Positions 22,862 to 39,171 of a stretch of DNA of 64,000 nt are shown here, piece by piece. The translations under genes and the position numbers were made by a program. Each line of letters opens with the position of its first letter. The first letter of the stretch is position 1. Origin of the DNA: an uncultured Maribacter sp. (lineage in GTDB: Bacteria; Bacteroidota; Bacteroidia; Flavobacteriales; Flavobacteriaceae); contig CANLTE010000013.1 in NCBI GenBank assembly GCA_947493885.1, forward strand, positions 1,772 to 65,771. The letters are read 5' to 3'. Under the pieces are notes generated by a model. That model searched no databases. It saw only the letters and a list, made by a program, of their open reading frames with translations, and was not told the origin of the DNA.

Positions 22862-22885
22862 TAAATTTGTTTAAGGTTTTACAAA
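22862..22885 (+). promoter_or_regulatory. -7 element of the regulator-crt operon overlapped by an inverted repeat (candidate operator)
   Basis: TAAATTTG at 22862-22869; TTTGT-N10-ACAAA at 22866-22885. Confidence 0.5.
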
Positions 22886-22890
22886 AAACA

Positions 22891-23793
22891 ATGAACAGAG
22901 TTAAAAAAACTTTTAGCATAAAAGATCTGGAAAATTTGTCTGGGGTAAAGGCGCATACCATACGTATTTGGGAAAAAAGGTACGGTTTGCTCGCACCTGA
23001 GCGTACAAAAACTAATATTAGGTTATACAGCCTAAGTAGTTTACAAAAATTATTAAACATTGCCCTTTTAAATGAAAATGGTGTTAAAATTTCTAAAATT
23101 GCCAAAATCCCCGAGAGTGAAATCGCGGAGCATGTAAATCAAATTACTGAACATAACCGCATCAAACTAAAACCATTAAATGCTTTTAAAATGGCAATGG
23201 TAAATTTTGATGAAAAACTATTTATTGATACTTATAATGAGCTTAAAAACAGTGAATCTTTTGAAAACGTAATTACCGATGTTTTTTTTCCCTTTCTCAC
23301 TGAACTTGGTCTACTTTGGCAAACGGACAGTATAAACCCTGCACATGAGCATTTTATCACTCATTTAATTAAGCAAAAAATAATTTTAGAAACCGAAAGC
23401 CTACAAACAATTACTCCTTCAAAAAACGACAAGGTTTTTGTGCTCTTTTTACCAGAAAATGAAATACATGAAATAGGGCTTTTATATTTAAACTATGAAG
23501 TAGTTAGGCGCGGATATAAATCTATTTACTTAGGACAAGCGGTTCCATTAAGCATACTAACCAATTTAAAAGCGCATTATAGCAATTTAATTTTTGTGTC
23601 ATACTTTACAGTTTCACCAACAAAAGACCAGATTGAAAACTATGTGAATGATTTTGAAACAACTGTAAACACCAATGGAACATTTGAACTGTGGCTTCTA
23701 GGACAACAAACGCAATACCTAGGAAAACAGAAACTACCTAAACATATAAAAACATTTACATCAATTGAAGAATTGACAAAAAAAATGGCCTAA
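22891..23793 (+). CDS. MerR-HTH / cobalamin-binding regulator (CarH/LitR-like)
   Basis: FSIKDLENLSGVKAHTIRIWEKRY (MerR HTH); W-x9-EH (WQTDSINPAHEH) and ExHxxG (EIHEIG). Start taken as ATG 22891 because the tracked TTG start lies inside the promoter. Confidence 0.88.
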   Translation: MNRVKKTFSIKDLENLSGVKAHTIRIWEKRYGLLAPERTKTNIRLYSLSSLQKLLNIALLNENGVKISKIAKIPESEIAEHVNQITEHNRIKLKPLNAFKMAMVNFDEKLFIDTYNELKNSESFENVITDVFFPFLTELGLLWQTDSINPAHEHFITHLIKQKIILETESLQTITPSKNDKVFVLFLPENEIHEIGLLYLNYEVVRRGYKSIYLGQAVPLSILTNLKAHYSNLIFVSYFTVSPTKDQIENYVNDFETTVNTNGTFELWLLGQQTQYLGKQKLPKHIKTFTSIEELTKKMA

Positions 23794-23803
23794 CCAATCA
23801 TTT

Positions 23804-25264
23804 ATGAAAAAAAACATTGCAATAATTGGCTCAGGGTTTTCGGCGCTATCAGCTTCATGCTATTTGGCAAAGGAAGGGCACAATGTTTTTATTTATGAAA
23901 AAAACGATGTCATTGGCGGACGAGCACGTCAATTTAAAAAAGATGGTTTTACTTTTGACATGGGACCAAGTTGGTACTGGATGCCTGATATTTTTGAAAA
24001 GTTTTTTTCAGATTTTGGTAAAACACCATCGGATTACTATGAACTAGAAAAACTAAGTCCCGCTTACAAAGTATTTTTTTCTGATGACCAAGTTGTAATC
24101 GAAGACCACCTAGATAAAATTTGTGTTGAATTTGAACGTATAGAAAAAGGAAGTGCAATTAAACTAAGAAAGTTTATAAAAAAAGCGCAGCAGAATTATG
24201 ATATAGCTATTAATAAAATGGTGTATAAACCCGGAATATCACCATTAGAGTTGGTTAGTTCGGACACCGTTTTAAGAATAAATGAGTTTTTTAAAAGTAT
24301 TAGCAAAACTATTAGAAGGCTTTTTAAAAACCCTAAACTAATTGCCGTTTTAGAGTTTCCTGTACTTTTTCTTGGCGCCAAACCTCAACAAACTCCTTCA
24401 TTTTATAGTTTTATGAATTTTGCTGATTTCGGGTTGGGAACATGGCACCCCAAAGGAGGTATGCATCAAGTTATATCTGCTATGCAAAAATTAGCAAAAG
24501 AACTTGGTGTTGTTATTAACGCAAACAGTTCTGTTAGTAAAATACATGTTCAAAATAAAAAAACAACAGGAATCACCTGCAATGATGCGTTTATTTCTGC
24601 AGATATTGTCTTAAGTGGTGCTGATTACCATCACGCTGAAACTCTTTTAGATAAACAATACAAACAGTATTCTGAATCGTATTGGTCAAAAAAAACCTTT
24701 GCTCCCTCCTCTTTACTATTCTATGTGGGTTTCAATAAAAAAATTGAAAAAGTAGAACATCACAATCTTTTTTTTGATACCAATTTTGAAAATCATGTGA
24801 ACACTATTTACGACAAACCACAATGGCCTAAATCCCCCCTATTTTATGCTAATTTTCCATCAATATCTGATGAAACAATGGCTCCCTCTGGATATGAAAC
24901 CGGCTTCTTTTTAATACCAATAGCACCTGATTTAGAGGATACTCCTAAGCTAAGAGAAAAATATTTTAACATACTAATAAACAGACTGGAAGAAAAGACT
25001 AGTCAATCATTAAAAAACAACATTTTATTCAAAGAGTCATTTTGTGTGAACGATTTTAAATCTGAATACAATTCATATAAGGGCAATGCCTATGGCATGG
25101 CCAATACGTTATCACAAACCGCTTTTTTGCGGCCAAAACTAAAGAGCTCCAAAGTAAAAAACTTATTTTTTACGGGTCAATTAACGGTTCCTGGTCCTGG
25201 AGTGCCCCCAGCATTAATATCAGGAAAGTTGGCTTCTGAACTTATTATTAACACTTTACGCTAA
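23804..25264 (+). CDS. crtI: Phytoene desaturase
   Basis: IIGSGFSAL, GGRA, FTFDMGPSWYWMP, GQLTVPGPGVPPALISG. Confidence 0.92.
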   Translation: MKKNIAIIGSGFSALSASCYLAKEGHNVFIYEKNDVIGGRARQFKKDGFTFDMGPSWYWMPDIFEKFFSDFGKTPSDYYELEKLSPAYKVFFSDDQVVIEDHLDKICVEFERIEKGSAIKLRKFIKKAQQNYDIAINKMVYKPGISPLELVSSDTVLRINEFFKSISKTIRRLFKNPKLIAVLEFPVLFLGAKPQQTPSFYSFMNFADFGLGTWHPKGGMHQVISAMQKLAKELGVVINANSSVSKIHVQNKKTTGITCNDAFISADIVLSGADYHHAETLLDKQYKQYSESYWSKKTFAPSSLLFYVGFNKKIEKVEHHNLFFDTNFENHVNTIYDKPQWPKSPLFYANFPSISDETMAPSGYETGFFLIPIAPDLEDTPKLREKYFNILINRLEEKTSQSLKNNILFKESFCVNDFKSEYNSYKGNAYGMANTLSQTAFLRPKLKSSKVKNLFFTGQLTVPGPGVPPALISGKLASELIINTLR

Positions 25265-25270
25265 ATTATT

Positions 25271-26110
25271 ATGAAAGAGATTTTTGATACGGTGTCATAT
25301 AATTGCAGTAAAATAGTAACCGAAAAATATAGTACAAGCTTTTCTTTAGCTACAAAAATGTTAGCACCATCAATTCGCACTGACATATATAATATTTACG
25401 GATTTGTACGTTTTGCTGATGAAATTGTGGACTCTTTTCATGATTATGACAAGAGTACCTTATTCAGCAAATTTGAAGCCGATTTAAATGAAGCTTTAAC
25501 ACATAAAATTAGTCTTAATCCAATTTTAAACGCCTTTCAACACACCTACCACCAGTATGGTATCCCTTACGAATTGGTTTCGTGTTTTATGAATAGTATG
25601 CGCGCAGATTTAACCAAAAAAGTATACACTACAAAAGAAGAATATGAAACCTATATTCATGGCTCTGCAAATGTGGTTGGACTTATGTGCTTAAAAGTTT
25701 TTGTAAAGGGTGACAATAAAAAATACGAAACCTTAAAACAGTCTGCCATGGCGCTTGGTTCTGCCTTTCAAAAGGTGAATTTTTTAAGGGATTTAAAGGA
25801 TGACTCCGAAATTCTAAATCGTGCCTATTTTCCAGATGTTAATCTAAAACAATTAAACATGGCTTCTAAAACAAAAATTGTTAAAGAAATTCTACTAGAT
25901 TTTGAAAAGGCATACAAAGGCATAAAATCCTTACCAACCGAAGCCAAATTTGGCGTATATACAGCGTACAGATATTATAAAAGACTATTGTTTAAGCTCC
26001 AAAAAACTCCCCCTTTACAAATACAAAATGTAAGAATTCGTGTTTCTAATCACGAAAAAATTAGCCTGCTAGCAAGATCGTATATCAAGTATAAGCTAAA
26101 TTTGGTATAA
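25271..26110 (+). CDS. crtB: Phytoene synthase
   Basis: YSTSFSLA, YGFVRFADEIVD, FQKVNFLRDLKDD. Confidence 0.94.
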   Translation: MKEIFDTVSYNCSKIVTEKYSTSFSLATKMLAPSIRTDIYNIYGFVRFADEIVDSFHDYDKSTLFSKFEADLNEALTHKISLNPILNAFQHTYHQYGIPYELVSCFMNSMRADLTKKVYTTKEEYETYIHGSANVVGLMCLKVFVKGDNKKYETLKQSAMALGSAFQKVNFLRDLKDDSEILNRAYFPDVNLKQLNMASKTKIVKEILLDFEKAYKGIKSLPTEAKFGVYTAYRYYKRLLFKLQKTPPLQIQNVRIRVSNHEKISLLARSYIKYKLNLV

Positions 26111-26112
26111 CT

Positions 26113-26568
26113 ATGAAGACACTTTTAGGCATATTGCTTTTTTTAGCCACATTTTGGGGTATGGAGTTTATGGCATGGTTTACGCATAAATACGTTATGC
26201 ATGGGTTTTTATGGAGCCTTCATAAGGACCATCATAAAAAAAACCATGACTCTTGGTTTGAACGTAACGATGCCTTTTTTCTTTTCTACGCCGTGGTTTG
26301 CATGACACTTTTTGGTTTTGCCAGATATACCGATTTCTGGTATGGTTGGCCACTTGGGCTAGGTATTTTGGCATACGGTATTGCCTATTTTATGGTTCAT
26401 GATATTTTTATTCACCAACGATTTAAATTGTTAAAAAAAACCAACAATTGGTATGCTAAAGGTGTTCGTAGAGCCCATAAAATGCATCATAAGCATATCC
26501 AAAAAGATGATGGTGAATGTTTTGGAATGTTAATAGTTCCTTTTAAATATTTCAAAAAAAATAAATGA
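26113..26568 (+). CDS. crtZ: Beta-carotene hydroxylase
   Basis: His boxes HKYVMHG, HKDHH, HDIFIHQR, HKMHHKH. Confidence 0.92.
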   Translation: MKTLLGILLFLATFWGMEFMAWFTHKYVMHGFLWSLHKDHHKKNHDSWFERNDAFFLFYAVVCMTLFGFARYTDFWYGWPLGLGILAYGIAYFMVHDIFIHQRFKLLKKTNNWYAKGVRRAHKMHHKHIQKDDGECFGMLIVPFKYFKKNK

Positions 26569-27254
26569 ATTCTCTTTATTTATGGATTAACCTTGGAGCA
26601 TTTTCATTACCATTTTTATATAGCTTTCATCCAAAATTAAAGCTCTATAAACAATGGAAAGCTATTTTTTTAGCCATTGCTTTAACCATGTGTTTTTACA
26701 TTCCGTGGGATATTATTTTTACGCAAAATGAGTTTTGGGGATTTAACCAACTATATTATTTAGAAAAAACTGTACTTGGTCTTCCCATTGAAGAATGGCT
26801 ATTTTTTATTTGCATTCCGTATGCTTGTATTTTTACTCATTACGCCTTACTTTTTTATTTCCCGAACCTAGGTATATCAAAAAAAGCTCTTAAACCATTA
26901 AGTTATACTATTGCATTCGCATTAGTTATCTTATCACTAATTTATCGCTCTAATTGGTATACAGCTATTAATTTTTTCTACGGAGGAATTCTAATTTTAT
27001 TCTGTGTTAAAACTAACCCAACTCTACTTCAAAGGTTTTTTATTACCTATTTAGTAATTTTAATTCCATTTTTCATTGTTAATGGTTTGCTTACTGGAAG
27101 CTTTATTCCCGAAGAAGTTGTTTGGTATAGCGCAAATCAAATTATAGGTATTCGTTTATTTACCATCCCAATTGAAGATACTATTTATGCGTTTACAATG
27201 GTGTTAACTAATCTATGGTTGGTTGAGTTCTTTAAAAAGAAGTTTACTCGTTAA
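26565..27254 (+). CDS. crtY: Membrane-type lycopene beta-cyclase (two-domain CrtYcd type)
   Basis: Two repeats of the P[IL]EE/PIED motif (LPIEEWLFF, IPIEDTIY); hydrophobic; in the crt operon. Confidence 0.85.
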   Translation: MNSLYLWINLGAFSLPFLYSFHPKLKLYKQWKAIFLAIALTMCFYIPWDIIFTQNEFWGFNQLYYLEKTVLGLPIEEWLFFICIPYACIFTHYALLFYFPNLGISKKALKPLSYTIAFALVILSLIYRSNWYTAINFFYGGILILFCVKTNPTLLQRFFITYLVILIPFFIVNGLLTGSFIPEEVVWYSANQIIGIRLFTIPIEDTIYAFTMVLTNLWLVEFFKKKFTR

Positions 27255-27801
27255 TTAACCTGCTTAATAATTCTCGAGTACTTTTACTATTCCAATTTAT
27301 GGCTCCCGTTTCCACAACTCTTATTTTACCTTTTTTATCAATTATATAGGTTGTGGGCAACAATTTAGAGTTTAAGGCTTTAGGTTCTTCTGTTTTTGAA
27401 TAGTAAACAGGAAAATTATAATTCTCTTTTTTTAAAAATTGATTAACTTTTTTATAATCTTCCTTTGCCACAAATACAAACTCCATTTTATCGCCATAAT
27501 CTTTATATAATTTTTGCATACTAGGTATTTCTGCGACGCAAGGCGGACACCATGTTGCCCAAAAATTTACAAGAACAACTTTCTCTCTTAAAGTTTCAAA
27601 ATTAAAATCGAATCCATTTAAATCAACAAGCTTCCATGAATAGCTTTTTAAAAGAACTTGTTCTTCTTTTGCTTCAGTTACACTTGATGCAAATAACCTA
27701 GAAACCTGAACCTTAATTTTAAACCCTAAAGGTGTAAAAAGTAAAATACAAATACTAACAATAAACAACGCATTAGATATTTGCTTCTTAGTCAAACGCA
27801 C
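27244..27801 (-). CDS. TlpA-family thiol-disulfide oxidoreductase (WCPPC)
   Basis: LVNFWATWCPPCVAE, LPTTYIIDKKG, N-terminal TM. Confidence 0.92.
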   Translation of the reverse strand: MRLTKKQISNALFIVSICILLFTPLGFKIKVQVSRLFASSVTEAKEEQVLLKSYSWKLVDLNGFDFNFETLREKVVLVNFWATWCPPCVAEIPSMQKLYKDYGDKMEFVFVAKEDYKKVNQFLKKENYNFPVYYSKTEEPKALNSKLLPTTYIIDKKGKIRVVETGAINWNSKSTRELLSRLINE

Positions 27802-27803
27802 TA

Positions 27804-28358
27804 TTATTCCTTTATAAGATTTTCCAATAAATTAGTTATTGTAGTATTATCCCAATCGGAAATTCCTTCTTCCTTTATCACAATACCTCCTTTTTTGTCA
27901 ATAAGATAAGACGCAGGTGCTTCCAAAATTTTAAAAGGTGCTTTTTCTCCAATTATTAAATAGGTAACTGGAAATGTAAATTTGTTTTTTTTCATAAACT
28001 CTTCTACAGGGGCTCTTTCTTCATTTGTGATTATATAAAAATCTACTTTTTCTTTATAGTTATCATATAACCCTTGAATACTTTGCAACTCTGCGAGGCA
28101 AGGCAACCTCCATGAAGCCCAAAAATTAATGAATACTACATTACCTTTAGATTTTTCAAAAGGAAAAAAGTTCCATTCGGCATCCTTAAGCTTCCATTCG
28201 TAATTTGGCAGCTTAATTCTATTGGATGCTGTAATAACCTCAGGTGTACCAGCAAATATTCTGTTTAACAATACTTTTCCATAAAACCCTAACGGAGTAA
28301 CAAAAAAAGCAAGCACCAGTATAATTAGAAGAACATTGAGAATTGTTTTTTTTCGCAT
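27804..28358 (-). CDS. TlpA-like thioredoxin-fold protein with an atypical WRLPC site
   Basis: INFWASWRLPCLAE, APASYLIDKKG, N-terminal TM. Confidence 0.88.
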   Translation of the reverse strand: MRKKTILNVLLIILVLAFFVTPLGFYGKVLLNRIFAGTPEVITASNRIKLPNYEWKLKDAEWNFFPFEKSKGNVVFINFWASWRLPCLAELQSIQGLYDNYKEKVDFYIITNEERAPVEEFMKKNKFTFPVTYLIIGEKAPFKILEAPASYLIDKKGGIVIKEEGISDWDNTTITNLLENLIKE

Positions 28359-28388
28359 TTGGAAAGAATTGAGTAGTTTTTCAAAACT

Positions 28389-28419
28389 AAAAAACTCCTG
28401 ATCAATATCAGGAGTTTTT
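28389..28419 (-). terminator. Terminator downstream of the acnA 3' remnant
   Basis: AAAAAACTCCTGAT-CAAT-ATCAGGAGTTTTT. Confidence 0.85.
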
Positions 28420-28443
28420 ATTCATTATTTACAGAATACCTTT

Positions 28444-28599
28444 TTAAGAAACTGCATTTTCTTTTTTTATAACATTTAATGCTGAGCCTTCATTAAACCA
28501 ATCTATCTGAGATTGATTGTATGTGTGATTAGCAACGATTTTATCTTTACTGCCATCTGCATGTACAACCTCACGGGTTAATTGTTGCCCTACAGCAAA
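28444..28599 (-). pseudogene. acnA: Orphan 3' fragment of an aconitase A gene
   Basis: Manual translation gives FAVGQQLTREVVHADGSKDKIVANHTYNQSQIDWFNEGSALNVIKKENAVS*, 36/48 identical to the C-terminus of 31346..33613. There is no start codon before the upstream in-frame stop. Confidence 0.93.
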
Positions 28600-29098
28600 G
28601 TAAACTGCCAGTTTTTTCTTTCTAAATACTTTTAAATTTTTATTTGTAAAAAATTACAACTATATTTATAAGTTATATACTACGCATGTACAATTTCTTG
28701 ATAAGGGCTTCGTATAAGTATGTTGAATTATTTTTCGCTAGTCTAGGTCAAAAAATTAAAGCATAGCATTAGCTATGGTGTCATTTTTTAATATTAAGAA
28801 TAGATAAGGAAACAGCATATATGAGAAATGATTATTATAAATAACTATTTAATTGAACTATGCAAATGCTCCTTACTTTTAACGGGTATTCAGAACGATA
28901 ACCCGACCTAGATATCTGCTATAATAGTTCCAAAAAAAAAGCAGAAAGGAATTATTTAGAAGAAAACAATAATGATATTTTAAAAAAACAACTATTCAAA
29001 GCCTACTATTAGTAAAACCTTCAAAATCTTATATTTAATTTCATATTAAAACTAAAACGTAAGTACATTTTAAACCCAAATCTAAAATAAACTTAGTT

Positions 29099-31087
29099 AT
29101 GAAAAATTTATATCTCCTTTTTTTAAAAAAGAAAAAAAACCTATTAATATTATTCATTCTAAATACAGCAATAACCATTAATAGCCAAGTTATAGAAACC
29201 CCTTATGATGCTGAAGGCTGGAGTATTCTAGACGTTACAAATGTTACTAAAATAATTTATGTTAGTTCATCTGGAAATGATGCTACTGGAGAAACCTATT
29301 CAAGTTCAGATGTTGAAATTGGAAATACCCCTATTCTACCAACAGGAAACATTAGACCGTTTCAAACAATAAGTGCTGCTTATAATCAGGTTGTTGATGG
29401 CGAAGCTGCATGGATACTTCTTAGGAGAGGAGATATTTTTTTTGAAAGCCTCCGTATTAGGAAAAACGGTAATTCCTTAAATATGCCAATGGTTTATGCC
29501 TCGTATGGAACAAGCAATCAACCACCTTTACTTAAAACAGGAGCTAACAATGGTATTATTGCATGTTGTAGAAGCAGAAGACATATCTGGATAATAGGCC
29601 TTTCATTTTACGCACATACAAGAAACCCTAACGATGCTGATTACATTGATGCTACTGATGCCGATGGTTTTAATTTCTACGCCTCAGCAAATGAAACCAT
29701 TGAAAATATTTTAATTGAAGGCTGTACGTTCAATTTTTATAGAAGCAATGTAATGCAAGCAAACCCAAATGGTAATATTGGAAATATTAGATTTAGAAGA
29801 AATGTTATTAGAAATAATTACAGCACGCAAAGTCATTCTCAAGGCTTCTACACCAGCAATATAAAAAATGGTATTCTCCTTGAGGATAATATTTTTGATC
29901 ACAATGGTTGGTTTACAAAATCTTATAACGGTACAAGTAATAATGGACAAGCTACAATTTACAACCACAACACTTATTTCTATCATACCGAACATGCAAT
30001 TCTTAAAGGAAATACCTTTCATAGACCATCTAGCATTGGTAATAAATGGGCTACCAACGAAGTATCAGGAGTTAATGATATAACAATTGAAAACAACTTC
30101 TATAATGACTGTGAGGTAGCTATTAGTATGGGTGGAAATGATGATGACGAACCTTATCGTTTTAGAAATATTTTAATAAAAGACAATGTTATTACCTCAT
30201 CAGGGTTATCTCAGCAAACAAATAGAACCTTAGGATGGAACATTGGAATTAATGATTGGGACAATGGAGAGGTTACCAAAAACCTTATAATTAATCAAAC
30301 AAACGCATCTGTAGATAATGGAAGAGGAATTTTTATTACTGGAGAAAATAGAGACCTTACTATTAATGAAAACATTCTTTATAATTTAACAAACACCTCT
30401 TTTTTACACTTTAGAGCTTTAACTAATAACACTAATGTATCTATAAGAAACAATGAAATAAGTGAGTCTCCTTTAGGAAATAATTTCATGGTTTATATGT
30501 CTAGTGATAATTACACGTCTTTAATGAGGAATAACATGTACAATGTACAAAATACTGCTGCCAACAATTTTTATATAACTGGTAATCAATATTCTTTATA
30601 TAATTGGATAGGAAATTCTATGGAAACAGGAGCTACAAATACACTTCCCAATACTTACCCTGATCCTAGTCGTTCATTTGATAGATATGTTAACGAGATT
30701 CTTGGGTTAACTAATAGAGACGAATACTATCAAAACCTGGCTAATATGAACTATTTGAATTGGGATGAAAGTTATACCGCAAATGCTATTAACGAATGGA
30801 TAAAAAATGGCTTCTTTGAAAACGGAACTTTATCCACTATTAATAACAATCAAACTCCCCTACCTATTTTCGTTTACCCTAACCCTGGAAATGGCATCAT
30901 AAAAATTGAATCTTCTGTTGAAGGTAATTATATTGTATATAACCAACTGGGGCAAACTATACAATCTGAAAAATTCAATCAATTAACTGAAATAGATTTA
31001 ACAAAACAAGCCACTGGTATTTACATAATCAATCTTTACGACCTATCAAATAATTCAATCAAAATATTTAAATATTTGAAAAGGTAA
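29099..31087 (+). CDS. T9SS-secreted right-handed parallel beta-helix protein
   Basis: Signal peptide; IYVSSSGND and WILLRRGDIF; repeated I-x-I-x-x-N beta-helix coils; C-terminal IFVYPNPGNG...GIYIINL...KYLKR (type A T9SS CTD). Confidence 0.88.
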   Translation: MKNLYLLFLKKKKNLLILFILNTAITINSQVIETPYDAEGWSILDVTNVTKIIYVSSSGNDATGETYSSSDVEIGNTPILPTGNIRPFQTISAAYNQVVDGEAAWILLRRGDIFFESLRIRKNGNSLNMPMVYASYGTSNQPPLLKTGANNGIIACCRSRRHIWIIGLSFYAHTRNPNDADYIDATDADGFNFYASANETIENILIEGCTFNFYRSNVMQANPNGNIGNIRFRRNVIRNNYSTQSHSQGFYTSNIKNGILLEDNIFDHNGWFTKSYNGTSNNGQATIYNHNTYFYHTEHAILKGNTFHRPSSIGNKWATNEVSGVNDITIENNFYNDCEVAISMGGNDDDEPYRFRNILIKDNVITSSGLSQQTNRTLGWNIGINDWDNGEVTKNLIINQTNASVDNGRGIFITGENRDLTINENILYNLTNTSFLHFRALTNNTNVSIRNNEISESPLGNNFMVYMSSDNYTSLMRNNMYNVQNTAANNFYITGNQYSLYNWIGNSMETGATNTLPNTYPDPSRSFDRYVNEILGLTNRDEYYQNLANMNYLNWDESYTANAINEWIKNGFFENGTLSTINNNQTPLPIFVYPNPGNGIIKIESSVEGNYIVYNQLGQTIQSEKFNQLTEIDLTKQATGIYIINLYDLSNNSIKIFKYLKR

Positions 31088-31276
31088 AAACTATGTAAAA
31101 TAATTATAACCTATAGAAAAGTAAACCTAATATTGAGGTAATTTAAACTTACTTCAGTTCTGTTTTTAACATATTAACAATCAGAAATTTGAAACATCAG
31201 GTTTTAATCGAACTCAACTAACTTAGAAATTGCCTTAGCAAAATAAACCTATTATATACCTTTATTGGTAATACAC

Positions 31277-31314
31277 AACAAAAAATCCAACGTAAAAACG
31301 TTGGATTTTTTGTT
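31277..31314. terminator. Bidirectional terminator (T9SS gene / acnA)
   Basis: AACAAAAAATCCAACGT-AAAA-ACGTTGGATTTTTTGTT. Confidence 0.88.
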
Positions 31315-31317
31315 TAT

Positions 31318-31342
31318 AGATTCCTGCCTTCTCGGGAATAAC
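31318..31342. repeat. Single REP/dRS3-like palindromic unit
   Basis: AGATTCCTGCCTTCTCGGGAATAAC, i.e. ATTCCT-N8-GGGAAT. The reverse strand GTTATTCCCGAGAAGGCAGGAATCT resembles the GTCATTCCCGCGAAGGCGGGAATC-type intergenic repeats. Confidence 0.55.
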
Positions 31343-31345
31343 AGA

Positions 31346-33613
31346 TTAAACATTTTCCTTTTTAATCAAATTTAAAGCAGAACCTTCTTTAAACCATTCA
31401 ATTTGAGAATCATTATAAGTATGATTTAATTTAATGGTGTCTTTGCTACCATCGGTATGCACTACTTCAACAGTTAATGGTTTACCAGGTGCAAACTCGT
31501 TTAAATCTAAGAAGTTGAACGTATCATCTTCTTGAATTAAATCGTAATCAGTTTCATTTACAAAGGTTAAACCTAACATACCTTGTTTTTTAAGGTTAGT
31601 CTCATGAATACGAGCAAAAGATTTTACCAATACCGCTGCAACACCTAAATGGCGAGGTTGCATTGCAGCATGTTCTCTTGAAGAGCCTTCACCATAGTTG
31701 TGATCCCCAACAACAATAGTTTTAACACCTGCTGCTTTGTAAACACGTTGCACATCTGGCACACCACCATACTCACCTGTTAATTGATTTTTAACAAAGT
31801 TTGTTTTTTGGTTGTACGCATTTACGGCTCCGATTAAGGTATTGTTTGCAATATTATCTAAATGTCCTCTAAAGCGTAACCAAGGTCCCGCCATAGAAAT
31901 GTGATCCGTGGTACATTTTCCAAAAGCTTTAATTAGCAATTTAGCTCCCGTAATGGAATCTCCGAGAGGTACAAAAGGCGTTAATAGTTGTAAACGTTCA
32001 GAATTGTCTTTTACAACAACATTTACACCACTGCCATCTTCTAGTGGTTCTAAATATCCATTATCTTTTACATCAAATCCTTTCGGAGGTAATTCCCACC
32101 CTGTGGGTTCGTCCAGCATCACTTCTTCTCCATTTTCATTAATTAAAGCATCTTTTAACGGATTAAAGTCTAAACGTCCAGCTATAGCTATCGCTGCGGT
32201 TAACTCAGGAGAAGCCACAAAAGCATGGGTATTAGGGTTACCATCAGCACGCTTTGCAAAATTTCTATTAAATGAGTGTACTATACTATTTTTTGGAGCG
32301 TTTTTGGGATCGCTATATCTAGCCCATTGCCCAATACATGGACCACATGCGTTGGTAAATATTTTAGCGTCTAGCTTTTCAAATACTTCGAGAATTCCAT
32401 CACGTTCTGCGGTATAACGCACTTGCTCAGATCCTGGGTTAATACCAAACTCTGCCTTTGTCTTTAATCCTTTATCTAAAGCTTGCTGCGCTATAGATGA
32501 AGCTCGTGACAAATCTTCGTAAGATGAATTGGTACATGAACCTATTAATCCCCACTCTACTTGCAACGGCCATTCATTATCTGTAGCTTTCTTTGTCATT
32601 GCAGCACCAACTTCCGTTGATAAATCTGGAGTAAACGGACCATTTAATAAAGGCCCTAATTCTGACAAATTAATTTCAATAACCTGATCAAAATACTGCT
32701 CTGGATTTGCATACACCTCAGCATCAGCCGTTAAATAGCTTTTAACTTCGTTAGCTGCATCAGCTATAACCGCTCTATCCGTCGCACGCAAATAACGGTC
32801 CATAGAGTCATCATAACCAAATGTAGATGTGGTAGCTCCTATTTCAGCTCCCATATTACAAATTGTTCCTTTTCCCGTACAAGACATTGCTGTTGCTCCA
32901 GGTCCAAAATACTCTACAATAGCACCTGTTCCTCCTTTTACGGTTAGAATTTCGGCTACTTTTAAAATCACATCTTTAGGCGCTGTCCAGCCAGATAACT
33001 TACCTGTTAGCTTCACACCAATTAGTTTGGGGAATTTTAGCTCCCAAGCCATCCCTGCCATTACATCAACAGCATCAGCTCCTCCAACACCAATAGCAAC
33101 CATTCCTAATCCTCCAGCATTTACAGTATGAGAATCAGTACCTATCATCATTCCTCCAGGAAAAGCATAATTTTCTAACACCACTTGGTGGATGATACCT
33201 GCACCAGGTTTCCAAAATCCAATTCCATATTTATTAGAAACTGATTCTAAAAAGTTAAAAACCTCGCTACTTGTACTATTTGCATGCTTTAGGTCTTTAG
33301 CGGCGCCTTCTTTTGCCTGAATTAAGTGGTCACAGTGTACCGTAGTTGGTACAGCTACTTTACTTTTTCCAGCCTGCATAAACTGCAACAACGCCATTTG
33401 GGCTGTTGCATCTTGACATGCAATTCTATCTGGAGCAAAATCTACATAATCTTTACCACGTATAAATGCCCTGGTTGCTTTTCCATCCCAAAGATGATTG
33501 TACAATATTTTTTCGGAAAGTGTTAGTGGTTTACCAACAACTTCGCGGGCAGCATCTACACGTTCTTTCATTCGTGCATAAACTCCCTTTATCACATCAA
33601 TATCAAATGCCAT
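31346..33613 (-). CDS. acnA: Aconitate hydratase (mitochondrial-like AcnA)
   Basis: [66 protein letters not shown]. Confidence 0.95.
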
Positions 33614-33799
33614 TAAAGTATATTATTATTTTTTGCTTAAGTGCTCTCTAAGATACGAAATATGTATACGATTGAAAAACACAATTTAAGAGGTTTTACC
33701 AAGAGATAGGTTTTGTTTAAGCTCATGCCAATAACTTAGATTTATCAGAAAAATTACCGAACTTAGTTTAAAAATCGTTAGTAAATATTACCAAACTGG

Positions 33800-34858
33800 A
33801 TGCAAAAAGTAGAAAAAATTACACCAGAAATTAATAAAGTATACTTTATAGAGCGTCATACTCTATTTCATATTCTTTCTGGAAAAGGAAGCATTCAGGT
33901 TGATTTTAAAAATTATTTTGACTGGCAGGAAAAAGCAATTTTTTTAGAAAAAGGACAATACATTAAATTCTTGTCTGATGATTTTATTGTCAGGAGAATT
34001 GAATTCTCGAATGAAAGCAAGTTTTATAATAATGACGTAAGAGTATTGTTTAAACACCTAATTTCTTTAGGTTACATTGACTTATTAGAATGTGAAGAAT
34101 GTAGCGCTTTTCTTTCTGAATCGGCATTAACGGAAAATTCAGCTGATATTATTGATATATCTTCTAAACAATGGTTTTGGCAAAACCCTTTTAAGGCAAA
34201 TAAAGAAGAATACCAAGTTATTTTTGACACTAAGGATATTATTGACAAAGAATATTACAATAATTTAACTAGCAATGACTTAGTAAACCTTATTAATGAC
34301 AGAGGATATAATGCCCAGTCATTAATCAAAAATAAAGTTGGTTTAACAGTAAAAAATTTAATGACATCCAAAAGGCTTCAAGAAAGTCTTAAAGAAGTTG
34401 CCTTCACTAATAAAAATATTCAAGAGATTTCTTATGATTTAGGATATAAAGATGACGCTTATTTCAATAGAGTTTTTAAAAACTCAGTTGGCCAAACACC
34501 AAAACAATTTAGAAAAAATTTCGATTTTAAAAATAGAGATTTGTTCTCACAAGATATTTTAGAACTTCTACAAAAATATCATACACATGAGAGATCACTT
34601 GAGTTTTATGCTAATAAAATGAACCTTTCAATAAAAGTGTTATCTAATAAAGTTCAAGCTAAAATGAATACTACTTTAGGGCAACTCATACGTTTAGAAT
34701 TAATCAATTCTGCTAAATTAATGATTTTAGAAGGACAGTCCATTGCGTCAATTTCTAGACAACTAGGGTTTGAAGAACCAAATCATTTTTCGAGATTCTT
34801 TAAACATTATTCCAAAGTCACGCCCACGGAATTCAAATTGAAAAAGTACAATTCTTAG
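33800..34858 (+). CDS. AraC-family regulator with two tandem HTH_AraC domains
   Basis: Short cupin (HILSGKGSIQVDF), then IQEISYDLGYKDDAYFNRVFK...TPKQFR and IASISRQLGFEEPNHFSRFFK...TPTEFK. Confidence 0.9.
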   Translation: MQKVEKITPEINKVYFIERHTLFHILSGKGSIQVDFKNYFDWQEKAIFLEKGQYIKFLSDDFIVRRIEFSNESKFYNNDVRVLFKHLISLGYIDLLECEECSAFLSESALTENSADIIDISSKQWFWQNPFKANKEEYQVIFDTKDIIDKEYYNNLTSNDLVNLINDRGYNAQSLIKNKVGLTVKNLMTSKRLQESLKEVAFTNKNIQEISYDLGYKDDAYFNRVFKNSVGQTPKQFRKNFDFKNRDLFSQDILELLQKYHTHERSLEFYANKMNLSIKVLSNKVQAKMNTTLGQLIRLELINSAKLMILEGQSIASISRQLGFEEPNHFSRFFKHYSKVTPTEFKLKKYNS

Positions 34859-34929
34859 TCCTTTTTTTGTAGCATTTAAATTTCCTATCTCTCGCATCTT
34901 TGCATTGTATAATGATAAAAACAATCAAG

Positions 34930-35283
34930 ATGGATATTAAAGAACAAGTACTAAAAATGGATGCAGTAGTTTCTCAAGGTGCTATTGTCGATGCTGTAAA
35001 AGAATTCTTTGCCGACAATGCTAACACCTCAGATTACGGAAATGGAGGAACCACAGGCAAACCAGAAATGATTACAAAAATGGAAAGTTTTGCCAGTTCA
35101 ATTGCAAAAGTAAATGGTATAACACATCATCATTCTATTGTAGATAGAAATGTATCAGCTTCAGAATTTACATTCGATTTCGAAATGAAAGACGGCAGTA
35201 AGATTTACTGGCACGAAATCATTCGTAGAATTTGGAATGATGAAGGAAAAGTAATTCAAGAAGAATACTTCAACGCAGAATAG
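34930..35283 (+). CDS. SnoaL/NTF2-like fold protein
   Basis: ~117 aa with SEFTFDFEMKDG...WHEIIRRIWNDEGKVIQEEYF, a typical NTF2 C-terminal beta-hairpin. ATG 34912 is an alternative start. Confidence 0.75.
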   Translation: MDIKEQVLKMDAVVSQGAIVDAVKEFFADNANTSDYGNGGTTGKPEMITKMESFASSIAKVNGITHHHSIVDRNVSASEFTFDFEMKDGSKIYWHEIIRRIWNDEGKVIQEEYFNAE

Positions 35284-35375
35284 GGCTGAATGTTAAGAAA
35301 TTGTCCTGTGGATAATCTTAATGAAAAGCCCGCGACGAAGCTTTGGATAATAAATAACAATAAAAAAAAAGTAAA

Positions 35376-35849
35376 ATGAAAAATTTAATAAAAACAGCAG
35401 TTTTAGGATTAGTATTAATAATGAATTCAGCAGTATTTGCTCAAGATAAAATGGCAAATAACGTTGATAATAGTAGTATAGCATTAGAAGGTTACAGTCC
35501 TGTTTCATACCTAGATTTAGAATTAGCTCAACAAGGCAACAAAGCTTATAAATCGGAATACAATAAAGTAGTTTACTACTTCACATCTTCAGAACAAAAA
35601 GCAACATTTGATAATAATCCAGAGAAATATCTCCCTCAGTATGGTGGTTTTTGTGCATTTGGATGTTATGCAGGAGCAAAATTTAGAATTGACCCAAACA
35701 AATTTTTAGTAGAAGATGGAAAATACTATTTGTATTTAAACAATGTTGAACTCGATGCAAAACAACTTTGGTTGGCTGAAAACAATCATACTAAATTAAA
35801 AAGTGTTGCTGATAAAAATTGGAAAAAGCTTAGCAAGACTCACAATTAA
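35376..35849 (+). CDS. Exported YHS-domain protein
   Basis: Signal peptide; ALEGYSPVSY, YYFTSSEQKATFDNNPEKYLPQYGGFCAFG, IDPNKFLVEDGKYYL. Confidence 0.87.
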   Translation: MKNLIKTAVLGLVLIMNSAVFAQDKMANNVDNSSIALEGYSPVSYLDLELAQQGNKAYKSEYNKVVYYFTSSEQKATFDNNPEKYLPQYGGFCAFGCYAGAKFRIDPNKFLVEDGKYYLYLNNVELDAKQLWLAENNHTKLKSVADKNWKKLSKTHN

Positions 35850-35860
35850 ATACTGAAATT

Positions 35861-36214
35861 ATGAAATTTATAACCAAAAGAATACACGCATTTTTAGATT
35901 ATCCTGTAGCAATAGTACCAGCTGTACTTCCCTTTCTACTTGGGCTAGGAAATACAAACCCCTTAGCTTTACAACTTTCAGTTGCAACAGGAATAGCTGC
36001 TTTTATTTTAACATTACTAACAGACCATCATTTAGGAGTATTTAAAGTGATTTCATATAAAATGCATTTAATTGTAGATTTTTTTGTCGCAATAGTGTTT
36101 ATTATTGCACCGTTTATTTTTTCATTCGAGGGAATAGATGCCTATTACTATTGGATAAATGGAATTGCAGTTCTAGTTGTAGTGAGTTTACATAAATCAG
36201 AGGTAAGAATATAA
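35861..36214 (+). CDS. Small 4-TM membrane protein (SPW-repeat-like)
   Basis: HAFLDYPVA...HLIVDFFV duplicated H-x2-[LV]D pattern; four hydrophobic segments. Confidence 0.75.
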   Translation: MKFITKRIHAFLDYPVAIVPAVLPFLLGLGNTNPLALQLSVATGIAAFILTLLTDHHLGVFKVISYKMHLIVDFFVAIVFIIAPFIFSFEGIDAYYYWINGIAVLVVVSLHKSEVRI

Positions 36215-36241
36215 ATACCATTGATATTAACGTTTATCAAT

Positions 36242-36281
36242 AATAGCGATTTGAGTAAAAATTCAAATCGCTATTCTTTTT
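36242..36281 (+). terminator. Terminator of the AraC-SnoaL-YHS cassette
   Basis: AATAGCGATTTGA-loop-TCAAATCGCTATT followed by a T-tract. Confidence 0.85.
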
Positions 36282-36339
36282 ATTTTATAAATTACTTTCT
36301 GGAAAATAAACGTTAAGGATTCCAGTAACATTAAAAAGC

Positions 36340-36371
36340 AAAAAGTCCGAGCTTAAAAACTCGGACTTTTT
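36340..36371 (-). terminator. Terminator of acnB
   Basis: AAAAAGTCCGAG-loop-CTCGGACTTTTT. Confidence 0.85.
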
Positions 36372-36396
36372 AAAATATTATAATCGTAACCTAAAA

Positions 36397-39171
36397 CTAG
36401 CTCACTAATTGCTTCTGTGATGGTTTGAACTTAGTTAATACAATACCTTCTACAGCTGCTTCGTACTCTTCCATAGTAGGTGTTCTTCCTAAAATAGTAG
36501 ATAGTACTACCACTGGTGTTGATGATAATAAAGACTCCCCTTTTTTCTCTGCTGCATCTCTCACAACTCTTCCCTGGAATAAACGTGTAGATGTTGCCAT
36601 TACCGTATCTCCTGGTTCTGCTTTTTCCTGGTTCCCCATACATAAGTTACACCCAGGACGCTCTAAGTATAACATGTTTTCATACTTAGTACGTGCTAAT
36701 CCTTTTGGTGCATCATCATCAAACACAAAACCAGAGTATTTTTCTAATATTTCCCAATCGCCTTCTTCTTTTAGCTCATCTACAATATTGTATGTTGGTG
36801 GTGCTACTACTAAAGGTGCATTAAATACTACTTCTCCTTGTTGTGCTTCAACATTTTTAAGCATTTGTGCTAAAATTTTCATATCCCCTTTATGAATCAT
36901 ACAAGACCCAATAAATCCTAAGTCTACTTTTTTAGTACCTCCATAGAAAGATAATGGCTGAATGTTATCGTGTGTGTAACGCTTAGATACATCTTCGTTA
37001 TTTACATCTGGATCCGCAATCATTGGCTCCACAATCTTGTCTAAGTCAATTACCACTTCTGCATGGTACTCCGCATCTGCATCTGGTTTTAAAGCTGGTC
37101 TTTCTCCAGATTTTAACTCTGCAATACGCTTGTTTGCTTTATCTACTAATCCTTGCAATACTTTCTTATCGTTATCCATACCCTTATCTAACATAATTTG
37201 GATACGATCTCTAGAAATTACTAATGATTCTGCTAATGTATCGTCTTCAGATATACAGATAGATGCTTTTGCTTTCATCTCAGCCGTCCAATCTGTAAAT
37301 GTAAAGGCTTCATCTGAAGTTAAGGTACCTATATGCACCTCAATGATTCTTCCCTGAAAAACATTTTCTCCTCCAAACTGATTTAACATCTGCTCTTGCG
37401 TAGCATGTACTACATCACGGAAGTCCATGTACGGCTTCATATTCCCTTTAAAGGTTACTTTTACAGACTGCGGAATTGGCATAGTAGCTTCACCTGTTGC
37501 TAATGCTAAAGCAACTGTTCCTGAATCTGCTCCAAATGCTACTCCTTTCGCCATACGTGTATGCGAATCTCCACCAATAATAACATCCCAATCATCTACA
37601 GCGATATCATTTAATACTTTATGAATAACATCGGTCATTGGAAAGTATTTCCCCTTAGGATCACGACCTGTAATTAAACCAAAGTCGTTCATAAAACTCA
37701 TTAATCTTGGAATATTAGCCTTAGACTTATCATCCCAAACCGAAGCAGTATGACAACCCGATTGGTAACCCGCATCTACAATAGGAGAAATAACGGTTGC
37801 TGCCATCATCTCTAACTCTTGAGAGGTCATTAATCCTGTAGTATCCTGAGAACCTACAATATTAACTTCTACTCTAACATTAGATCCAGCATGTAATGTT
37901 TTTCCTGGTGTGGTTCCTACTGCATTTTTGTTGAATATTTTTTCAACGGCAGTTAAACCTTGCCCATCTATAGAAACTTCTTTTGCAGCAGCATATACTT
38001 GAGGTACATCTATCCCTAAAGCTTTACATGCAAAAGTTTGTAATTTTTTACCGAAAACAACGGCGTATGATCCCCCAGCTTTAATAAACTCCATTTTTGG
38101 AGGTGTTAATGCTGTAGAAATATCTTTAACGGCTTTACCGTCTTTATATAATTTTTTCTCTTTTGTATTTATAGTAAGTATTGTACCTGTATCTACAGTA
38201 TATACTTGCTCTAAAACTGGTTCTCCATCTGCATCATAAACGGTTTTACCGCTTTCGTCTTTTTTAGTAACCCAGTTTTTAAGATCAATACCAATACCAC
38301 CAGTTACCCCAACTGTTGTTAAGAAAATTGGTGCAATACCATTAGTACCAGCAATTACTGGTGCTATATTTATGAACGGTACATAAGGGCTTGAAGAAAC
38401 TCCTGTCCATAAGGCTACGTTATTTACACCAGACATTCTAGAAGACCCCACTCCCATAGTGCCTTTTTCCGCGATTAACATAACACGTTTATCTGGGTGC
38501 TGCTCTTTTAAAGCCAACACTTCTTTTTGCATTTCTTTATTATGCTCAAACATACACTGACCATGTAATTCGCGGTCTGATCTTGAGTGTGCATCTGCAC
38601 CTGGCGATAATAAATCTGTAGAAATATCTCCAACACCAGCGATATAAGTAACGATTTCTATTTCTTCTTCTACTTCTGGAAGTTTTGTAAAGAATTCTGC
38701 TTTCGCATAACTTTCTATAATTTCTTTTGCAATAGCACTTCCTGCTTTCATTGCCTCCTCTAAACGATCCGTATCTGCTTCATAAAGGAATACCTGAGTT
38801 TTTAAAACTTTAGCAGCCTCTGCAGCAATGCCTGCATCATTTCCTAAAGCTAAGTCTAATAATACTTCAATTGATGGGCCACCTTTCATGTGAGATAATT
38901 GCTCAAACGCAAAAGCTGGTGAAATTTCTTCTAAAACAGACTCACCAAGAATAATTTCTTTTAAAAATTTTGCTTTTACTCCAGCAGCACTGGTAGTTCC
39001 TGGCAAAGTGTTATAAATAAAAAACTTAAGAGAATCTTCGCGATGGGCGTTACCTGAATCTTTGATTTGCGAAATAATTTCGCTTAATAATTCAGCTCCA
39101 TCAATTGGCTTAGGATGAAGTCCTAGAGCTTTTCTTTCTTCGATTTCTTTGATGTAATCGTTGTAGTTCAT
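36397..39171 (-). CDS. acnB: Bifunctional aconitate hydratase 2 / 2-methylisocitrate dehydratase
   Basis: HEAT-like N-terminus (FIYNTLPGTTSAAGVKA), STDLLSP, GSQDTTG, GGDSHTR, FIGSCM, PGCNLCMGNQ. Confidence 0.95.
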   Translation of the reverse strand: MNYNDYIKEIEERKALGLHPKPIDGAELLSEIISQIKDSGNAHREDSLKFFIYNTLPGTTSAAGVKAKFLKEIILGESVLEEISPAFAFEQLSHMKGGPSIEVLLDLALGNDAGIAAEAAKVLKTQVFLYEADTDRLEEAMKAGSAIAKEIIESYAKAEFFTKLPEVEEEIEIVTYIAGVGDISTDLLSPGADAHSRSDRELHGQCMFEHNKEMQKEVLALKEQHPDKRVMLIAEKGTMGVGSSRMSGVNNVALWTGVSSSPYVPFINIAPVIAGTNGIAPIFLTTVGVTGGIGIDLKNWVTKKDESGKTVYDADGEPVLEQVYTVDTGTILTINTKEKKLYKDGKAVKDISTALTPPKMEFIKAGGSYAVVFGKKLQTFACKALGIDVPQVYAAAKEVSIDGQGLTAVEKIFNKNAVGTTPGKTLHAGSNVRVEVNIVGSQDTTGLMTSQELEMMAATVISPIVDAGYQSGCHTASVWDDKSKANIPRLMSFMNDFGLITGRDPKGKYFPMTDVIHKVLNDIAVDDWDVIIGGDSHTRMAKGVAFGADSGTVALALATGEATMPIPQSVKVTFKGNMKPYMDFRDVVHATQEQMLNQFGGENVFQGRIIEVHIGTLTSDEAFTFTDWTAEMKAKASICISEDDTLAESLVISRDRIQIMLDKGMDNDKKVLQGLVDKANKRIAELKSGERPALKPDADAEYHAEVVIDLDKIVEPMIADPDVNNEDVSKRYTHDNIQPLSFYGGTKKVDLGFIGSCMIHKGDMKILAQMLKNVEAQQGEVVFNAPLVVAPPTYNIVDELKEEGDWEILEKYSGFVFDDDAPKGLARTKYENMLYLERPGCNLCMGNQEKAEPGDTVMATSTRLFQGRVVRDAAEKKGESLLSSTPVVVLSTILGRTPTMEEYEAAVEGIVLTKFKPSQKQLVS

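Follow-up and report, generated by a model that had tools for sequence, protein, structure and literature searches.

Why should the 3′ end of a housekeeping gene occur twice at one locus, with a gene for a secreted protein between the two copies? This question is raised by the aconitase gene, acnA, of an uncultured Maribacter sp., which we examined within a 64-kb window (the whole stretch of DNA analysed).

An orphan acnA tail and its terminator

The window contains an intact acnA gene (31346-33613, 755 aa) and, at 28444-28599 on the minus strand, a remnant that corresponds to the final 51 codons of an aconitase (28447-28599, with the stop codon at 28444-28446). Translation of positions 28420-28680 on the minus strand yields FAVGQQLTREVVHADGSKDKIVANHTYNQSQIDWFNEGSALNVIKKENAVS followed by a stop. 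The remnant is identical to the C-terminal end of the intact protein at 36 of 49 amino acids, and the similarity does not reflect chance, because a six-frame whole-genome search with acnA as query recovers it with E = 4e-16 and 75% identity. No acnA similarity was found upstream of the remnant, and no start codon within 28420-28680 (minus strand) opens a reading frame of at least 40 aa. Behind the remnant is stranded a bidirectional hairpin terminator (28390-28419, minus strand; 13-bp stem and T-run, z = −3.9). The first-pass annotation had described an aconitase tail on this strand with a terminator of its own, and both features were recovered here. They are followed by genes for a pair of TlpA-like thiol-disulfide oxidoreductases (27244-28358, minus strand; Pfam Redoxin and AhpC-TSA), the native downstream neighbours of acnA.

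Native and foreign ends of acnA

The 3′ part of the remnant (28444-28549, minus strand; codons ~724-757 plus stop) matches the native acnA end of the sister-species genome G001 at 41/48 and 48/56 nt, values comparable to those of the flanks, whereas it matches the intact copy at just 30/48 and 42/53 nt. In a FastTree phylogeny of 93 sequences, this part is the sister of the G001 native end (support 0.98). The terminator at 28390-28419 is near-identical to the hairpin located 3′ of the intact acnA in G001, and remnant, terminator and tlpA pair are collinear with that genome, where acnA abuts tlpA without an insert. The same direct succession of acnA and the tlpA pair, which had been put forward as a check, is seen in G003, G005 and G007 as well as G001, and a tlpA homologue lies 3′ of acnA in 33 of 80 other Flavobacteriaceae loci; on the basis of these gene orders, this arrangement would be the ancestral state. 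The phylogeny and the collinearity thus identify the remnant as the host's own, displaced acnA end, as had been proposed.

The 5′ part of the remnant, which we term R5 (28550-28599, minus strand; codons 707-723), travels with the cargo block described below. It is identical at 45 of 46 positions to the corresponding remnant in assembly GCA_947501755.1, and at 31 of 46 to each of the G001 native end and the intact copy. At its start, the remnant has 11 nt (TTTGCTGTAGG) that are unlike every acnA, replace P709 and lie inside a 17-nt repeat. The open frame and synonymous differences of the remnant are no proof of alleles kept by selection; the copy in GCA_947501755.1 carries two frameshifts, which indicate that the orphan tail is decaying.

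The intact gene is a composite. Its body (31536-33613, minus strand) is of the native type and is itself a mosaic: residues 1-700 are 98% identical to those of G001, and nucleotide mismatches are patchy, ranging from 0 to 26 per 100 nt. The breakpoint scan that had been called for places a break between nt 2079 and 2088 (max-chi2, p ≤ 0.0005), with G001-like sequence upstream. Beyond it, the 3′ end that completes the gene (31346-31535, minus strand; nt ~2080-2268, codons ~694-755) is 28% diverged from G001, compared with ~7% upstream, and the last ~185 nt group in the tree with loci of Mariniflexile, Aquimarina, Gaetbulibacter, Lacinutrix and Dokdonia. The best nucleotide match to this tail is 85%, and no closer donor was found; the intact copy retains all 16 invariant C-terminal residues. 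Divergence and phylogeny thus mark the intact end as foreign. The earlier view of a foreign acnA therefore stands for the last ~185 nt, whereas the rest of the gene is native-type.

The duplication boundary lies 31-40 nt downstream of the point at which the foreign tract begins, and resident nt ~2088-2118 are missing from both acnA copies, with the joint at codon 707. The only exact sequence shared at the boundary is the 5-nt TTTGC (GCAAA on the plus strand), just as the first reading had it in finding no clear att core.

The DNA between the two tails

The sole gene between the two terminators, and between the two acnA tails, is the cargo gene (29099-31087, plus strand), which encodes a 662-aa protein. 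This carries a Por_Secre_tail domain (PF18962, residues 592-654, E = 9e-8), and its AF2 model (pLDDT 88.6) has an N-terminal hydrophobic helix at residues 5-27, a right-handed beta-helix at ~50-500 and a beta-sandwich C-terminal domain at 590-661. The protein is accordingly predicted to have both the sorting domain and the N-terminal signal sequence of a T9SS cargo. Foldseek aligns its model only weakly with the folds of GH136, PL6 and GH110 (TM 0.30-0.38), which does not place it in these or other characterised beta-helix CAZyme families, and its sequence has no match among PDB sequences. We regard it as a candidate carbohydrate-active enzyme that is probably secreted and acts on polysaccharides. 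Outside the block, its nearest homologue shares 65% amino acid identity and occurs in unrelated contexts.

An AT-rich spacer (28600-29098, ~25% GC) precedes the cargo gene; it has no other sequence match and no Rfam family at threshold. Between cargo gene and intact acnA lies a second bidirectional terminator (31277-31314; 17-bp perfect stem, z = −6.1 and −6.6), shared by two convergent genes, the chimeric acnA and the cargo gene. Its lack of a counterpart in G001 indicates that it arrived with the foreign DNA. An orphan T9SS gene and a second terminator between the acnA ends, both noted previously, are thus present. Exactly bracketing the spacer and cargo gene are two copies of a 17-nt imperfect direct repeat, one spanning the remnant/spacer junction (28589-28605, plus strand) and the other 23 nt past the cargo stop codon (31110-31126, plus strand). 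They match at 15/17 positions, have no further copy in the window, and sit away from the acnA-homology boundaries. No repeat of the block was found elsewhere in the genome, and the 68-kb contig yielded no PF00589 integrase.

Exchange with a sister species

Assembly GCA_947501755.1, which was made independently, has the same layout, and the arrangement is therefore not an assembly artefact of the present genome. This strain is conspecific with G001, with an identical TlpA2 and with crt and tlpA genes that are 96-100% identical at the nucleotide level. Between the two species, a tract at 28550-31801 appears to have been exchanged recently, as it differs at 37 of 3252 nt (1.1%). It comprises the first 50 nt of the remnant, the spacer, the T9SS beta-helix gene, the terminator and acnA nt ~1813-2268. 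Only one of the four assemblies with identical TlpA2 has the block; the other three sister assemblies are without it.

The tract in GCA_947501755.1 contains G000-type SNPs at acnA nt ~1861-2086, which argues that it came from a G000-like lineage. Outside R5, the orphan of GCA_947501755.1 is of its own host type (53/54 and, downstream, 92/92 positions identical to G001). The two remnants are therefore different mosaics, with downstream crossovers at different points within the orphans. The middle 48 nt of the GCA_947501755.1 orphan match the intact foreign copy at 46/48 positions, and an additional gene conversion or a third donor is needed to account for them. From these mosaics we conclude that ordinary homologous recombination transferred the block between two related marine species.

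Proposed history of the locus

We propose, with a probability of roughly 0.7, that two kinds of recombination acting on a ~3-kb block, and no self-mobile element, gave rise to this locus: a homology-facilitated illegitimate insertion, and then spread by double homologous recombination in which the orphan tail provided the downstream arm. In the first step, linear DNA from a different Flavobacteriaceae genus would have entered an ancestor or donor lineage, bringing the last ~185 nt of acnA, a terminator, the convergent T9SS beta-helix gene and the 0.5-kb spacer upstream of it. Homologous pairing within acnA would have anchored this DNA, with a crossover at nt 2079-2088, and its far end would have been joined illegitimately to resident acnA near codon 707 through the 5-nt microhomology TTTGC. 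Some 30-40 nt of resident sequence would have been replaced; acnA would have stayed whole, with a foreign tail, while the resident tail, terminator and tlpA pair were shifted 2.9 kb downstream, leaving the tail as an untranslated orphan that, in this explanation, would be without function.

In the second step, which the sequence mosaics show, ordinary double homologous recombination carried the block between two species that share ~90% identity, with one crossover upstream in the acnA body and the other downstream, within the orphan tail paired to the acnA tail of the recipient. The recipient thus loses nothing and gains the cargo and a new tail, its own tail becoming the next chimeric orphan. 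The first-pass annotation had weighed an integrated element against homology-facilitated recombination. The latter is the best fit, because Campbell-type integration does not predict the 31-40 nt offset between foreign tract and duplication boundary. Three observations count against our explanation. The original donor is unsampled (the foreign tail and cargo gene reaching 85% nt and 65% aa identity at best, with a microhomology of only 5 nt), so the first step cannot be reconstructed base by base; the 17-nt repeat around spacer and cargo is not predicted by a one-step model; and the middle of the GCA_947501755.1 orphan equals the intact foreign copy.

A bolder interpretation, which we think rather unlikely, assigns a role to the orphan or to the repeats. 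The orphan tail might be a portable homology arm that lets the cassette enter any genome with acnA through RecA alone, independently of synteny, with its layers (R5, middle and 3′ part) recording past hosts; or the 17-nt repeats might mark an undescribed trans-acting cassette-insertion system in Flavobacteriaceae.

We consider it improbable that the block is a decayed site-specific integrative element, whether e14-like or cis-mobilisable, that brought a surrogate tail to the 3′ end of acnA and subsequently lost most of its genes, the integrase among them. Hill et al. reportedly described in 1989 how prophage e14 resides in E. coli icd, with icdC left as a pseudogene. The architecture of icd, e14 and icdC (PMC13626634) is that of acnA, in that incoming DNA completes a housekeeping gene and the native C-terminal fragment persists at the far end as a pseudogene; a direct repeat flanking the cargo cassette would also suit such an element. 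However, the 15-kb prophage e14 encodes an integrase and has a defined att core that coincides with the duplication boundary, whereas at acnA a single cargo block of 3 kb is present, with one gene between the tails, no PF00589 integrase on the contig, and a 5-nt exact match in place of an identical att core. Campbell integration predicts coincident ends, but the foreign tract extends past the boundary, and the 17-nt repeats lie off the acnA-homology boundaries. In the second species, the block ends at ordinary crossover points, which differ in position. Nor is the target used recurrently: we found no duplicated acnA end in ~520 other genomes (40 relatives, 400 family genomes and 80 further loci), and hence no trace of a family of elements directed at acnA. 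The same survey speaks against the earlier suggestion that acnA is a cargo-acquisition hotspot across Flavobacteriaceae, and our finding does not establish the gene as a general integration hotspot.

Two separate events are likewise improbable in our estimation. A short foreign patch (acnA tail, terminator and ~200 nt) might have displaced the native tail before a 2.5-kb spacer and T9SS cassette was inserted exactly at the junction, with the 17-nt repeat as target or microhomology, for example by a single crossover of a circular intermediate. Such a course would account for the precise placement of the repeat, for which a rough post-hoc chance estimate is 0.001-0.01, and for the unusual 11 nt that replace P709 within it. 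Yet similar 17-nt repeats of 88% identity are common in this AT-rich stretch, the motif was not found near 59-65% homologues of the cargo gene, the intermediate state was seen in no genome, and two rare events would be required at one spot. An assembly error or an old tandem tail duplicate that diverged in place is very improbable, even though both genomes are draft assemblies: two independent assemblies share the same order at 1.1% divergence with private orphan indels, in-place divergence cannot give an orphan with the tail and terminator of the sister species beside an intact tail that matches other genera, and the duplicate is absent from seven same-genus species and three strains conspecific with G001.

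Relation to known systems

Homology-facilitated illegitimate recombination is a process demonstrated by experiment in Acinetobacter, Streptococcus pneumoniae, Pseudomonas stutzeri and E. coli conjugation (PMC3240628; references in PMC5361080). The acnA locus shares with it one homologous anchor in a conserved gene, visible as the one-sided crossover at nt 2079-2088; a single illegitimate joint at a few bases of microhomology, with foreign DNA trapped between the two and a short resident stretch replaced, would be further points in common. The locus differs in being deduced from a natural footprint in a housekeeping gene of Flavobacteriaceae, for a process known mostly from laboratory transformation. 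We view the locus as a clear-cut natural case of a known process and not as a new kind of element. The process offers marine Flavobacteriaceae an integrase-free route to genes resembling those for secreted polysaccharide enzymes. For annotation, unannotated gene-tail fragments beside conserved genes can flag imported DNA that lacks mobile-element genes.

The same displacement logic has been proposed for orphan 3′ ends and immunity genes of the Vibrio cholerae T6SS and for Rhs loci (PMC5361080). As in the sequential displacement of T6SS effector-immunity modules and in Rhs/CDI orphan ends, the 5′ part of acnA is constant, a new 3′ end arrives with cargo, its predecessor is moved downstream and becomes an orphan, and later exchange proceeds by plain homologous recombination. 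In contrast to these polymorphic toxins, acnA encodes a TCA-cycle enzyme with no immunity gene, the diversity of its tail is not selected, and a single orphan is present instead of an array.

Accessory 'islets' are exchanged through recombination in flanking core genes. Oliveira et al. are said to have provided, in 2017, an example of such islets or hotspots between conserved genes. The acnA block resembles them in its presence in one of four assemblies within a species, in its variable crossover points, and in the jump in identity from 79-93% to 99-100% at its borders: the tract is 98.9% identical to GCA_947501755.1, compared with ~87% (79-98%) in the downstream flank and ~93% in the acnA body. 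It differs in that its downstream arm is supplied by a fragment displaced from the same gene and not by the next core gene. The displaced tail thus lets the insert move between species by plain homologous recombination, and the block could enter any acnA-bearing genome, whatever lies downstream.

An AraC cassette on the opposite side of acnA behaves in a similar manner. It had been thought possibly part of the block, but it is present in G001, which has no block, and absent from the strain that carries one; this distribution indicates a separate, independently exchanged unit. Both flanks of acnA are variable locally, within this genus only.

Organization of the acnA locus

The window (GC content about 32%) lies on contig C13 of G000, the genome of a marine member of the Flavobacteriaceae. 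A carotenoid operon on the plus strand (22867-27254) is followed by genes for two TlpA-like redoxins on the minus strand (27244-28358) and by a hairpin terminator (28390-28419). Next to this terminator is an acnA tail that carries no annotation (28444-28599, minus strand), which we term the remnant or orphan. A spacer of 0.5 kb with 25% GC (28600-29098), a plus-strand T9SS cargo gene coding for 662 aa (29099-31087) and a bidirectional terminator (31277-31314) separate the remnant from the intact acnA gene (31346-33613, minus strand, 755 aa). On the far side of acnA are an AraC regulator with three small genes (33800-36214, plus strand) and acnB (36397-39171, minus strand).

Translation of the remnant gives FAVGQQLTREVVHADGSKDKIVANHTYNQSQIDWFNEGSALNVIKKENAVS followed by a stop, which is identical to the intact acnA tail at 36 of 49 positions and is recovered at E=4e-16 in a six-frame search of the whole genome. 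Folding is much more favourable for both terminators than for shuffled sequence. What the first-pass annotation had observed of the second acnA 3′ end was right in every detail. Directly past the native terminator, upstream of tlpA2, the sequence TAGTTTTG (28358-28389, minus strand) fits TAnnTTTG, the −7 promoter motif of Bacteroidetes. Because of this match, the tlpA promoter is probably located below the remnant, undisturbed by the insertion.

The remnant as the resident tail

The first-pass annotation had asked whether acnA of related genomes runs straight into the TlpA pair. It does so in G001, the closest species representative, where the same pair begins 88 nt after acnA, and likewise in three other species of the genus (G003, G005 and G007); none of the four carries the T9SS gene or a second tail. 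A tlpA homologue also follows acnA in 33 of 80 further Flavobacteriaceae loci. In a three-way alignment, the remnant, its stop, the hairpin and the start of tlpA are collinear and near-identical with the intact 3′ end of G001, and the sequence past the stop of the intact G000 acnA has no counterpart in G001. Once its first 46 nt are set aside, the remnant agrees with G001 at 41/48 and 48/56 nt, whereas agreement with the intact copy falls to 30/48 and 42/53. In a FastTree phylogeny of 93 tails, built on just 101 nt and used only for the placements of these two sequences, the remnant and G001 come out as sister tails (support 0.98) in a clade with the genus's other species, and the intact tail groups with loci of Mariniflexile, Aquimarina, Gaetbulibacter, Lacinutrix and Dokdonia (support 0.84). 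This is the outcome foreseen at first pass, that the remnant would be closer to the native acnA of relatives. Synteny, nucleotide matches and tree placements together identify the remnant as the resident tail and the working acnA tail as foreign to the genus. The remnant has diverged from G001 by about 14%, equal to the divergence of the adjacent tlpA genes.

Recombination breakpoints within acnA

Between the acnA proteins of G000 and G001 there are 12 differences in the first 700 residues, against 13 in the last 48. The nucleotide comparison reveals a mosaic: mismatches range from 0 to 26 per 100 nt, and divergence in the final 174 nt is 28%. A scan for breakpoints, also suggested at first pass, was made by the maximum chi-square method with G001 ('native') and the nearest foreign-type loci as parents. 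It places a switch from native to foreign between acnA nt 2079 and 2088 (window 31526-31535; permutation p ≤0.0005), and the ratio of native to foreign informative sites is 92:9 to its left and 8:30 to its right. The duplication does not begin until nt 2119 (window 31495), so the foreign tract extends 31-40 nt beyond its boundary, and resident sequence of that length is missing from both copies. An overshoot of this kind is consistent with a homologous crossover combined with a separate illegitimate joint, but not with Campbell integration at one core.

A second strongly divergent patch of acnA (nt 781-900, window ~32714-32833) differs from both strains of the G001 species at 28 of its 120 nt and brings six amino acid changes in residues 269-302. 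As neighbouring stretches have 0 mismatches, acnA has probably been struck by further recombination imports. In acnA, G000 and G001 are also nearer to G019 and G015, members of two other genera (90% aa), than to the other species of their own GTDB genus (84-87%), which may reflect older gene transfer or uneven rates.

A block shared between two species

Among 5.8 billion proteins the cargo protein has a single match at 98%, encoded by GCA_947501755.1; the next match is at 65%. Gene order in that assembly is the same, with the tlpA pair, remnant, spacer, T9SS gene and acnA in succession. The window and GCA_947501755.1 share 83-95% nucleotide identity in the carotenoid and tlpA genes and 93% in the acnA body, and over the tract 28550-31801 they differ by 37 mismatches in 3252 nt (98.9% identity). 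GCA_947501755.1 is a member of the G001 species; its TlpA2 protein is identical to that of G001 (GCA_947498505.1), and the two share 96-100% nucleotide identity over the carotenoid/tlpA region and acnA nt 1-1860. The block is absent from three other assemblies of this species. The imported tract of GCA_947501755.1 takes in acnA nt ~1861-2086, and the presence there of all 13 G000-type variants indicates an origin in a G000-like lineage. In the remainder of its 64 kb the window aligns collinearly to G001, at 89-91% identity. G000 and G001 therefore belong to distinct species, and the block is a recent transfer across species. An exact-protein look-up of TlpA2 found no other strains of the window's species.

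The remnants of G000 and GCA_947501755.1 are different mosaics. Both start with a 46-nt segment, R5, which is 45/46 identical between them but has no match to G001 or to the intact copy, scoring only 31/46 against either. Past R5, the G000 remnant is of the resident type. In the remnant of GCA_947501755.1 (locus L050, 7342-7503), the middle 48 nt correspond to the intact foreign copy (46/48, with one base inserted), and the last part corresponds to G001 (53/54, with a 2-nt deletion), as do the next 92 nt downstream, which are identical. From the shared R5 and the differing host-type parts that follow, the right-hand exchange point lies within the orphan, differently placed in the two genomes, and the distal part derives from the recipient's own tail. 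The intact-like middle suggests that one tail copy was converted by the other, or that a third donor contributed. Selection on the orphan, as might be read from its open frame, was rejected because the copy in GCA_947501755.1 carries two frameshifts. The synonymous bias of the orphan would be the expected residue of divergence before displacement, and the open frame and mostly synonymous differences of the G000 orphan are as expected of a young relic.

Probable mechanism of insertion and spread

We infer that a homology-facilitated illegitimate insertion built the order of foreign tail, cargo and orphan. The mosaics show how the unit has spread since, by double homologous recombination. One arm is the acnA body, and the other is the orphan, pairing with the acnA tail of the recipient. 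Because these two targets adjoin in a naive genome, the recipient would lose nothing on receiving the block. The same logic has been proposed for the displaced T6SS effector ends of V. cholerae and for Rhs orphans (PMC5361080), which the acnA block resembles in its displaced end. The mechanism is of a known kind, and the acnA locus is an unusually legible natural example.

Alternatively, the tail may have been displaced first and the cargo inserted there later, in a separate event. The spacer and the cargo gene are enclosed exactly by an imperfect direct repeat of 17 nt, CCTACAGCAAAGTAAAC (28589-28605) and CCTATAGAAAAGTAAAC (31110-31126); its copies, 15/17 alike, are the only two in the window, and one lies across the remnant junction. 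However, a repeat of this kind could have arisen by chance in AT-rich DNA. The arrangement also resembles that of e14, icd and icdC, which relies on an integrase and an att core (PMC13626634), both of them missing at acnA: contig C13 carries no tyrosine integrase, the insert is a single gene, and exact sharing of sequence at the boundary is confined to TTTGC. A repeat element was ruled out, the block being single-copy in the genome. Homology-facilitated recombination, one of two options offered in the first-pass annotation, is supported with corrections, one being that the AraC cassette is set apart.

A second exchanged unit between acnA and acnB

The AraC cassette (~33682-36390) encodes a double-HTH AraC regulator, a 127-aa protein, an exported YHS-like protein and an SPW-repeat membrane protein. 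Its ~2.7 kb show 100% identity between G000 and G001, though these genomes are ~90% identical. In the block-carrying GCA_947501755.1, and also in G003 and G005, the cassette is absent and acnA abuts acnB. Its absence from a strain with the block and its identity in G001, which has no block, contradict the earlier suggestion that it formed part of the incoming DNA, and mark it as a second, separate unit, recently and independently exchanged on the other side of acnA. G007 has a different gene of 1067 aa, with no Pfam match, between acnA and acnB (locus L040, 14380-17583). This intergenic site seems to be variable in the genus. Over the 64 kb, gene content differs solely on the two flanks of acnA.

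Distribution of the block and nature of its cargo

The proposal that acnA is a family-wide cargo hotspot found no support. Among 40 relatives only G000 has a second acnA tail, and none was found in 80 further loci; nor did any of these 80 have a T9SS homologue in the 6 kb around acnA. Six genomes of 400 Flavobacteriaceae species (296 genera) gave a second match to the acnA C-terminus, but all six proved to be distant 670-aa paralogues. A search of GTDB genomes for the donor of the foreign tail reached at best 89% aa and 85% nt identity, the spacers gave neither a match nor an RNA family, and the original donor of the block was not found among the genomes sampled.

The only Pfam domain of the cargo protein is the T9SS sorting domain, and the protein has no sequence match in the PDB. 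Its AlphaFold model (pLDDT 88.6) has a signal-like helix at the N-terminus, then a long right-handed beta-helix and, after a short helical stretch, a CTD with a beta-sandwich fold. Structures matching this model do so weakly (TM 0.30-0.38); they are GH136 lacto-N-biosidases, PL6 alginate lyases, GH110 and phage tailspikes. From this model, it is reasonable to consider the cargo a candidate secreted carbohydrate-active enzyme. Homologues of 59-65% identity occur in other marine isolates (loci L051, L052 and L053) in unrelated neighbourhoods, each with a non-coding stretch of 400-800 bp upstream, as though a gene of this type commonly moved alone, together with a promoter region of its own.
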